64,000 bases of DNA from a virus (taxonomy: Duplodnaviria > Caudoviricetes), in the IMG/VR virus record IMGVR_UViG_3300021960_000017; one strand, 5' to 3'. Each line of letters begins with the position of its first letter. Within the stretch, counting starts at the first letter, position 1. The position numbers and the translations under genes are program-made. The notes below the pieces were generated by a model, which saw nothing but the letters and a program-made list of their open reading frames with translations, did no database searches and was not told the origin of the DNA. Shown in pieces: positions 33,308 through 40,917 of the stretch.

Positions 33308-33382
33308 TCCAGGATAGCTCAACGGCAGAGCCATCGGCTGTTAACCGATAGGTTGTAGGTTCGAATCCTACTCCTGGAGCCA
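33308..33382 (+). tRNA. tRNA-Asn(GTT)
   Basis: Full cloverleaf, anticodon loop CTGTTAA, GGTTCGAATCC, encoded CCA. Confidence 0.97.
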
Positions 33383-38201: not shown

Positions 38202-38231
38202 TTGACAAGCAAGTAAAAAAGGTAGTATAAT
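38202..38231 (+). promoter_or_regulatory. sigma70-like promoter
   Basis: TTGACA-N18-TATAAT. Confidence 0.65.
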
Positions 38232-38237
38232 AAAGGT

Positions 38238-39992
38238 ATGTTTTTAGGGATTCTTACATTACTGGTTGCTCTGTTCATTTCAGGTATTGCAGCCTATTAT
38301 AGTATTATTGGTTTGACTGCTATTTTTGCAGCAGCATTTATACCCATTGTTCTTATGGGTAGTGTGTTAGAGGTTGGTAAGATTTTAACAACTGTTTGGC
38401 TGCATCAAAACTGGCAACGAGCTCCCAGAATTATCCGCGGTTATTTGACTATAGCAGTTATAGTACTCATGTTCATTACAAGCATGGGTGTGTTTGGCTT
38501 TTTAAGTAAGAGTCATATTGAACAGGCAAGTGTTGGTGTAGAACAGCGAGCCCTTAGTGATAGTATTGATGAAAAGATTATTCGTAGCCAAGCAAAAATA
38601 GAACGCTGGGCTGAGGAAATAAAACGTCTTAACACAGGTGGTGATAGCACTCGTATTGATGGTTTGATTGCCAGAGAGCAACAACGCATCAAGGATGCAA
38701 ATGAAAGACTTGTACCACAGATTGATGCTGAAAATGCAAAGATACCTGGCCTAAGACAGCAAGCACAAAGAGAAATTGGTCAACAAGAAAAGCGTTTAGT
38801 TGATGCTCAAAAACGAGCAGAGGCAAGCATTAAAGTTGCACAGGATGAACTTACACGATTAGACGCAGATGTTGAAGCATATACTAAACAGGGCACAACT
38901 GGGTCCGGCGGATTTTTTGGTGGTAAAACTGATAATGTTGCCAAGGGTGCTGAACTACGCAAAAACCAAAAGCCAGAGCGTGATAAACTACAAGCAGACA
39001 TAGATGCAGCAAAAGCAAACGAACTTGCTATTGCAAGTAAGGTGCAGGCCGAAATAAGAGACATTAACAGTCGTTTGGCTACTAGCATTAAAGCAGTTGA
39101 AGCAAGAATTGTAGATATACGCAAGAGTATTGATCCTACCGTTAAACAGGCTAATGATAACATTGCTCGCTATACACTCGAAGCAGGCAATGCTAACAAA
39201 GGTGTAGATACTCGTATCTCTGAAATTGAAAAACTAATAGAAGCAGAGCAGCCTATTATTGATAAACTACGTGAAGAAAAGTTAGTATTTGAGAAAAAGT
39301 ACAGACAGTTTGAAGCAGAGGTTGGCCCAGTTAAATATATTGCTGAACTTATATATGGCACTACCACAGACAAAACGCTGTTAGAAGAAGCAGTGCGTTG
39401 GGTGATAATTATTATAGTAGCAGTTTTTGATCCACTTGCTGTCTGTCTTGTTCTTGCTGGTACAATGACCATAGGCTGGGCCAGACAAGAACGCAAGAAA
39501 AACATTAAAAAAAAGATAGTAAGAGTTGACGACCCTAGATTAGAGGAATTAGAAATGAAACTAGACCAACATAACGACATTCTCAGTGAACTTGAGAGAC
39601 TACTAGATGATAATCTAGGCAAAATGGATCCTGCAGAGTATGCAAAACTCAAAGCAGAATATGACAGCATGGTTGCAGAGCGTGACACACTTGCAGCAGC
39701 ACTTGAAGAAGCAAAAGCAGAGTCAGATGGTCTAGTTGACAAAGTAGTTGCTACTGAAGCAGAGCGTGATGCACTAGCAAAAAGATTAGATGATGTTGCA
39801 GCAGGTAGCAGTGCATTTGAAAAGCGTATTGAAGAATTACTAAAGCGTATAGCAGATCTAGAAGCAGAAGTTGAACGCCGTGATGCAGTGGTGCTTAAAA
39901 TGGCAGAGAAGTATCAGTTAGTTGAAAAAGACAGTTTTGGTGATGATTTAGTTGCAGCCGCTAACGGGCAGCAGACAGAAGCAAAAAACTAA
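38238..39992 (+). CDS. membrane-anchored coiled-coil protein
   Basis: Three N-terminal TM helices, long coiled coil, internal TM (IIIIVAVFDPLAVCLVL), second coiled coil. Confidence 0.75.
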   Translation: MFLGILTLLVALFISGIAAYYSIIGLTAIFAAAFIPIVLMGSVLEVGKILTTVWLHQNWQRAPRIIRGYLTIAVIVLMFITSMGVFGFLSKSHIEQASVGVEQRALSDSIDEKIIRSQAKIERWAEEIKRLNTGGDSTRIDGLIAREQQRIKDANERLVPQIDAENAKIPGLRQQAQREIGQQEKRLVDAQKRAEASIKVAQDELTRLDADVEAYTKQGTTGSGGFFGGKTDNVAKGAELRKNQKPERDKLQADIDAAKANELAIASKVQAEIRDINSRLATSIKAVEARIVDIRKSIDPTVKQANDNIARYTLEAGNANKGVDTRISEIEKLIEAEQPIIDKLREEKLVFEKKYRQFEAEVGPVKYIAELIYGTTTDKTLLEEAVRWVIIIIVAVFDPLAVCLVLAGTMTIGWARQERKKNIKKKIVRVDDPRLEELEMKLDQHNDILSELERLLDDNLGKMDPAEYAKLKAEYDSMVAERDTLAAALEEAKAESDGLVDKVVATEAERDALAKRLDDVAAGSSAFEKRIEELLKRIADLEAEVERRDAVVLKMAEKYQLVEKDSFGDDLVAAANGQQTEAKN

Positions 39993-40026
39993 TTCAGGTC
40001 TCTGTTGCAGAAACCATCAGGGACCT
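39983..40026 (+). promoter_or_regulatory. candidate -1 programmed ribosomal frameshift signal
   Basis: A AAA AAC heptamer in frame just before TAA; 6-nt spacer; 9-bp stem AGGTCTCTG/CAGGGACCT; -1 frame open to 40306. Confidence 0.7.
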
Positions 40027-40042
40027 TGACTTACCAGCAGGT

Positions 40043-40306
40043 GTGAATATAGACTTTGGTACTGTTTTTACTCAGTATCCAGACAAAGGCGATTTGTTTA
40101 TTAGAGTAGATGTATTACCAAACAGGTTGTTTAGATACACTGGCGATAAGTGGATAGAAATACCCAAAACACGCACTACTAGTTATTTGGGCAATGAAGA
40201 ATATATCAAGCATATTTTAAATGATATAAGTGCAGGAAAAATAAAACTTGAAGATCTTACTGAAGATGAACAGGAAGAAATACAAAAGTTTTTAGGCAAT
40301 GAGTAA
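40043..40306 (+). CDS. hypothetical domain, likely the C-terminal extension of 38238 via frameshift
   Basis: Weak GTG start; frame open from 39965; FGTVF..YPDKGDLFIRVD.LPNRLF. Confidence 0.6.
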   Translation: MNIDFGTVFTQYPDKGDLFIRVDVLPNRLFRYTGDKWIEIPKTRTTSYLGNEEYIKHILNDISAGKIKLEDLTEDEQEEIQKFLGNE

Positions 40307-40661
40307 ATTTACGATTGTAACATCGCCGGATTATTATTTTATGGACCAACCAAGTATTCTTAGTTACGGGTTGGATATCAATAATGAAAGAGTTTGCAAC
40401 TACATAAATGATGTAGATGTAGATGTAACAGTATACTTGGGAACACCAAGTTCAGATTTAAACTGGTTAATCAATGTTTCTAGGAGCGTTGATTATATAC
40501 TGTTAAATACTAATGTAGATATGTTAGTTACTGGTTTGTTAATTGACAAACCCAACACATACTACTATAATAATATCATTAACTTTGATATTTTAAATAA
40601 ACAACAAATCGAAGATCCAGTTGCATTTTTGATTAGTTGGCTGAACAAACTAGAGGTATAA
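40299..40661 (+). CDS. hypothetical protein
   Basis: 120 aa in operon. Confidence 0.55.
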   Translation: MSKFTIVTSPDYYFMDQPSILSYGLDINNERVCNYINDVDVDVTVYLGTPSSDLNWLINVSRSVDYILLNTNVDMLVTGLLIDKPNTYYYNNIINFDILNKQQIEDPVAFLISWLNKLEV

Positions 40662-40889: not shown

Positions 40890-40917
40890 TTGACATTTCT
40901 TGTATAGAGTGTATAAT
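40890..40917 (+). promoter_or_regulatory. sigma70-like promoter (TAAATA also at 40925)
   Basis: TTGACA-N16-TATAAT. Confidence 0.7.

Follow-up and report, generated by a model that had tools for sequence, protein, structure and literature searches.

Comparative sequence evidence for a probable -1 ribosomal frameshift that would extend a membrane protein in a clade of marine T4-like phages

We analyzed a 64,000-nucleotide stretch of viral DNA (here called the window) in which a gene for a predicted membrane protein (ORF1) is followed by a small open reading frame (ORF). With good confidence, and on the basis of comparative sequence analysis, the two constitute one recoded gene with a -1 ribosomal frameshift rather than two genes. 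Ribosomes very probably slip back by one base at an A-rich heptamer at the end of ORF1 to add a conserved 105-residue tail. The mechanism is a textbook one; as far as our searches reach, what is new is the gene family, the clade-wide conservation of the site, and its single origin from unsplit genes. A literature search returned no report of a frameshift in this membrane protein gene. The coordinates of the relevant features are listed in Table 1.

Table 1. Features of the putative recoded gene in the window
Feature	Position	Strand	Description
Predicted sigma-70-type promoter	38202..38231	+	perfect TTGACA-18-TATAAT; 6 nt from the end of the -10 box to the ORF1 ATG
Zero-frame ORF1	38238..39992	+	584 aa; predicted to cross the membrane four times, with a long loop and a C-terminal tail that both form coiled coils
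Slippery heptamer A_AAA_AAC	39983..39989	+	X_XXY_YYZ register of ORF1
Predicted -1 frame extension	39989..40306	+	105 codons plus stop; joined to residue 584
Zero-frame stop TAA	39990..39992	+	immediately 3' of the heptamer
Putative stimulatory hairpin	39996..40026	+	arms 39996-40004 / 40018-40026; 13-nt loop
Conserved C-terminal domain	40043..40303	+	motif FG...KGDLF(I/V)RVD.LPN.L(F/Y)R..G..W

An earlier note on this DNA, made from the letters alone, had proposed the cassette, and its description of the site holds in each particular. ORF1 closes with the codons GCA (39981), AAA, AAC, and TAA, which confirms the claimed heptamer and its register. Six nucleotides (39990-39995) separate the heptamer from a 9-bp stem, both as described there, and the stem includes a single wobble pair (T40001.G40021). 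The -1 frame, which the note gave as open from 39965 through the ORF that begins at 40043, indeed continues to a stop at 40304-40306 and reads ...KLIQVSVAETIRDLDLPAGVNIDFG... Tandem slippage would yield ...EAKN followed by LIQVSVAETIRDLDLPAGVNIDFG..., or 584 + 105 = 689 residues. The predicted products are thus a short isoform of 584 aa and a long isoform of 689 aa, the sizes that the note had anticipated (584 and about 689), and the predicted junction peptide of the long isoform is NLIQVSVAETIR. When the window sequence alone is considered, the fold of a 78-nt piece compared with shuffled sequences gives z = -1.14, which is modest and not significant; the 50 nt after the heptamer out-fold 98.3% of the 50-nt windows in the surrounding 9 kb, placing them in the best 1.7%. 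A covariance model of the heptamer and hairpin finds exactly one match in the 64-kb window.

We evaluated the conservation of the cassette among relatives, which are metagenomic and in which homologs of the small ORF are called as separate genes of 64-87 aa. About 50 related syntenic loci provided 29 distinct junctions from about 16 independent lineages, and pattern scans of viral and metagenome contigs recovered about 90 further loci. The shared gene order comprises an ORF of roughly 590 aa, the small ORF, a 120-aa ORF, S21, Hsp20, ClpS, and a GMP reductase-like gene. In every locus with a stand-alone small ORF, that ORF shares 10-73 nt with a 580-611-aa ORF, relative to which it is in the -1 frame. 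The earlier note had suggested looking for a conserved heptamer in homologs, and both the heptamer and the hairpin are kept: A_AAA_AAN occurs in the zero-frame register in all 29 junctions, 0-3 codons ahead of the stop, with C (10), A (8), G (6), or T (5) as the last base. Elsewhere in the ORFs of this gene family, in-register slippery heptamers occur at 0.0022 per codon, which corresponds to about a 2% chance per independent lineage in the roughly 10-codon overlap, and there are about 16 such lineages.

A hairpin follows the heptamer in nearly all lineages and is built from differing bases, with stem arms such as AGGTCTCTG/CAGGGACCT, AGGCTTCTAC/GTAGGAGCCT, GGGTACCTAA/TTAGGTGCCC, and GGTCTCC/GGAGACC. 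A MAFFT alignment has zero gaps across the heptamer and the 5' arm, indicating a fixed spacing of 6 nt. The hairpin's G-C-rich foot stays at this distance while the stem bases vary in a compensatory fashion. RNAalifold did not find a consensus structure on the plain MAFFT alignment, and we instead scored a named structure with controls. In this 10-pair helix, 75-76% of the cells pair and both sides have changed in 6 of the 10 pairs. Its covariation score was reached by none of 500 shuffles, and slid registers all scored lower. About a quarter of the pair cells are unpaired because of bulges in some lineages. The 50 nt past the heptamer fall within the best 3.5% of the 50-nt windows of their own locus in 12 of 16 lineages. 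The covariance model gives a single match per split locus, at the junction, and no match in single-ORF relatives, phrog_11591 genes, or phage Mosig. We also considered an antisense terminator, as the complement of the cassette reads as a hairpin followed by a T run. This candidate was ruled out by the intervening gap of 6-7 nt, by a terminator scan that made no call, and by the codon register, for which a terminator has no need.

The main rival explanation is transcriptional slippage, in which RNA polymerase inserts an extra A in the A run so that a share of the mRNAs has the two parts joined in a single frame, without any slip by the ribosome. The A runs span 6-9 bases, and lineage L033/L044 has nine A's and no hairpin; runs of nine-A-type length permit polymerase slippage in Thermus dnaX and in IS elements. 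However, 16 of the 29 junctions have just six A's, which is short for efficient bacterial polymerase slippage. The polymerase has no need of the zero-frame register, yet the register is kept at every junction, and compensatory changes in a hairpin at constant distance are a hallmark of ribosomal frameshifting. A contig from an RNA library also lacks an inserted A, although this is a weak point, as contigs drop minority forms. We therefore give transcriptional slippage a small chance as the general explanation and regard it as plausible chiefly for the nine-A lineage; ribosomal -1 frameshifting is favored because register, spacing, and covariation all fit. The loci of the nine-A lineage (L033 2321-2380 and L044 2146-2205) have three more codons before the stop and a minimum free energy of about 0 downstream, and this lineage possibly relies on transcriptional slippage or on a hairpin-independent shift. 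Together with the weak hairpin of L017, these loci indicate that the mechanism may not be uniform across the split clade.

A second explanation is that the small ORF is a gene of its own which starts at GTG 40043 or at a noncanonical codon, the heptamer and hairpin being incidental. Gene callers do report the ORF separately in all assemblies, and the window has this GTG at codon 19 of the -1 frame. However, the GTG lacks a properly spaced ribosome-binding site, and in 13 of 18 lineages the first ATG, GTG, or TTG of the -1 ORF falls past the conserved FG motif; in L012 it is reached only at codon 76, and L030 has no start codon in 114 codons. The poor initiation that the earlier note attributed to the ORF in the window has its counterpart in most lineages, where the downstream ORF is without a usable start. 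Conserved residues are also found ahead of the called starts, every locus shows the same -1 frame relation, and single-ORF relatives are common. Two separate genes are accordingly very unlikely.

The extension itself is alignable across lineages down to 43% identity, and its strongly conserved domain starts about 20 residues past the slip site. The domain has a dN/dS of 0.06-0.12, indicating strong purifying selection. Across the first 20 codons, where the hairpin lies, dS is 0.14-0.64 in eight of ten pairs compared with 0.7-3 downstream, and dN/dS rises there. Low dS together with raised dN/dS is the signature expected of a putative RNA element that overlaps a loosely constrained linker.

An assembly artefact that dropped a base from the A run, or a real frameshift mutation that disabled the tail of a decaying gene, has a negligible chance of being correct: homopolymer runs are typical error sites, but about 50 loci, taken from many samples and assemblers, show the same split, purifying selection on the extension is strong, and the cassette itself is conserved. 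The earlier note had raised an indel in the A run as a concern, and the independent assemblies answer it at the level of contigs, where minority RNA forms would not show: contigs of three independent DNA studies and one metatranscriptomic contig (a relative with about 90% identity) cross the junction without an indel.

In the proposed ribosomal mechanism, most ribosomes would translate ORF1, halt at the TAA, and release the 584-aa protein. A fraction, held up by the resistance of the hairpin 6 nt downstream to unwinding, would pause while tRNA-Lys and tRNA-Asn occupy A_AAA_AAC. The two tRNAs would then each shift back by one base, and the 105 further codons would be read in the -1 frame, giving the 689-aa isoform with a small conserved globular domain at the end of its tail. 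The cassette would in this way set a fixed ratio of short to long isoforms from one mRNA. In E. coli, A_AAA_AAC is less slippery than A_AAA_AAG, which suggests that the long isoform may be the minor product; exactly A_AAA_AAG is present in six junctions among the relatives. The window also carries a tRNA-Asn gene (GTT anticodon; 33308-33382) that reads AAC, the A-site codon of the heptamer, and this phage tRNA may affect slippage or may be a coincidence.

The predicted promoter ahead of ORF1 is likely that of the recoded gene. The same layout is present in L045 (1157-1194), and the -10 part, GGTAGTATAAT, is found in L002 (2072-2092). Its position only 6 nt from the ATG suggests a leaderless or nearly leaderless early transcript. 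Virion structural proteins are encoded upstream of the gene in the window, and S21, Hsp20, and ClpS downstream. Two further 12-of-12 matches to the sigma-70 consensus lie at 40543-40571, ahead of S21 (40662), and at 40890-40917, ahead of Hsp20 (41001).

We assessed the origin of the split through relatives in which the two parts share a frame. The earlier note had also suggested searching homologs for natural in-frame fusions, and we found L060 and at least 71 representative proteins of greater distance from the split genes. L060 is a single 518-aa ORF whose front is 41-50% identical to ORF1 and whose end is 42% identical to the extension. In this freshwater-type locus (875-2431), the linker holds three tandem copies of a roughly 20-residue unit (VSAGDNLVVPEVQITPPDPI) and sits where the marine clade has the coiled-coil tail and slip site. 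A profile search with the extension matched 1,140 representative proteins; among the best 150 of these, 71 also carry an ORF1-like part, with the domain at the extreme C-terminus. The ORF1-like part begins at about the first residue (within the first ~20) in 55 of the 71, and the other 16 are shorter and hold its rear part only. Fused representatives with the N-terminus, again among the best 150, are 465-727 aa long. The 689-aa trans-frame product aligns end to end with the fused relatives, and the slip site falls in a variable linker.

When a tree is built from the first 440 residues, the split genes group together in one clade (SH-aLRT 100) that is embedded among fused genes. This nesting, in a tree rooted by midpoint only, suggests that the split genes derive from a fused ancestor. 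The cassette would thus have arisen once, in an abundant clade of marine T4-like phages, from single-frame ancestors. Loci L017, L019, L020, and L012 are near-identical over the first 440 residues of ORF1 (branch lengths of 0.03-0.14), whereas their extensions are far more divergent, with 44-71% identity to that of the window. This contrast is a hint of intragenic recombination, close to the slip site or ahead of it.

Among GenBank phages, tblastn with the extension gave no match, matches to ORF1 are limited to its N-terminal 90-200 residues (Pelagibacter phage Mosig and some jumbo phages), and a blastn search with 8 kb of sequence surrounding the site gave no close phage record. Mosig was considered as a cultured counterpart and rejected: it has a shorter homolog followed by a small ORF unrelated to the extension, and it lacks the cassette. 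The Mosig homolog (L001 5349-9178) has 326 aa, lacks the C-terminal domain, adjoins a putative glucosaminidase, and lies near a GH108 lysozyme; these neighbors may hint that the family acts at the cell envelope.

The AlphaFold model of ORF1 is all-helical (pLDDT 81), with helices at residues 2-29, 34-57, and 64-133, long helices up to 373, a further helix at 379-425, and then a helical tail. By the positive-inside rule, the loop between residues 100 and 385 is probably periplasmic, and the tail after ...RQERKKNIKKK, together with the extension, is probably cytoplasmic. Neither ORF1 nor the extension scores above threshold in Pfam; a sub-threshold match is to Phage_int_SAM_3. Matches in the protein atlas are to unnamed viral clusters only, and the family is represented in marine metagenomes by over 7,900 clusters at 90% identity, all of them unnamed. 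Sub-threshold Pfam matches among 49 members of the ORF1 family include Tetraspanin in 21 and DUF4407 in 12 (best E = 3e-4). The gathering threshold of DUF4407 (PF14362) is not reached, and the protein of the window has no DUF4407 match. AlphaFold DB entries for DUF4407 give E values of 3e-4 to 2e-3 but low TM-scores of 0.18-0.25. DUF4407 and tetraspanin-like proteins may share with the modeled ORF1 a topology of three membrane helices, a large helical loop, and a fourth helix; ORF1 differs from DUF4407 in its extra 170-aa coiled-coil tail and frameshift-encoded domain. We know of no function for DUF4407.

The model of the extension has four strands and three helices (pLDDT 73) and gives nothing significant against the PDB (best Foldseek E = 0.5; best VIA-align Z = 3.7). 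Against a viral library, it matches one single-ORF relative and gives short matches, of about 45 residues, to tail-fibre-like proteins. The strand part recurs in virion structural proteins of phrog_11591 (Pseudomonas phage PA5oct, Agrobacterium phage Atu_ph07, and other jumbo phages), which carry near their C-terminus a module of roughly 45-70 residues with the motif FG...GD.F.R.D.LPN.L(F/Y)R..G..W. The extension matches positions 413-486 of the 497-position phrog_11591 profile (E = 6e-5), while true members match from position 2. About the first 250 profile positions are absent here, the helical end of the extension is not common to the two, and the window has no phrog_11591 gene of its own. 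The extension and phrog_11591 thus have a module in common and are not the same protein. Eight large proteins (P0009-P0014, P0020, and P0021; 900-2,900 aa) contain the extension's strand motif, of roughly 40 residues, in 8-14 tandem copies, indicating that the module serves as a repeat too.

We infer a protein-binding role for the added domain, as a dosed head on a stalk anchored in the membrane. A doubtful but conceivable elaboration is that the long isoform acts as a membrane tether, in which the domain, at the tip of a cytoplasmic coiled-coil stalk, could hold at the inner membrane a component of the virion or of its assembly, or else a partner from the host.

Three known systems offer comparisons with the putative cassette. 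E. coli dnaX, which encodes tau and gamma, has a heptamer of the same A-rich class (A_AAA_AAG), a simple hairpin about 6 nt downstream, and a zero-frame stop near the site. However, the dnaX shift truncates the product while the shift proposed here would extend it, and the gene families are unrelated. dnaX also uses a Shine-Dalgarno-like stimulator ahead of its site, and the window shows no evident counterpart in the roughly 16 nt upstream. In lambda gpG/gpGT and its analogues, a -1 slip shortly before the upstream ORF ends produces a C-terminally extended isoform at a fixed ratio, and the arrangement is kept across many phages despite sequence divergence, as here. In contrast, the lambda site is G_GGA_AAG, and the protein here is an integral membrane protein in another genomic context, with S21, Hsp20, ClpS, and a GMP reductase-like gene (IMPDH family) as neighbors. 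The gene matches no tail assembly chaperone family in PHROG or Pfam and does not lie between tail tube and tape-measure genes; the earlier note was right to set it apart from the tail assembly chaperones. T7 gene 10A/10B and other capsid frameshifts likewise involve a -1 shift just before the stop that places a short C-terminal extension on some molecules, but those are capsid proteins, and the protein here has no capsid homology.

Gene callers split this gene in every assembly, and thousands of metagenomic entries are consequently annotated as two unrelated hypothetical proteins. Recognizing the frameshift corrects the gene model of a very abundant, uncultured group of marine T4-like phages and adds a well-supported nonchaperone case to the catalogue of phage recoding. 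The relatives also provide a natural series, spanning all four Z bases, several stem sequences, one hairpin-less lineage, and unsplit relatives, in which to study the emergence of a frameshift site from an unsplit gene and the factors that tune it. The C-terminal domain is flagged as the functionally dosed part of an uncharacterized family of phage membrane proteins. If the long isoform were indeed a membrane tether, the frameshift would fix how many stalks of an oligomer bear a docking head, and recoding would have a novel function in phage morphogenesis or in the remodeling of the cell envelope.
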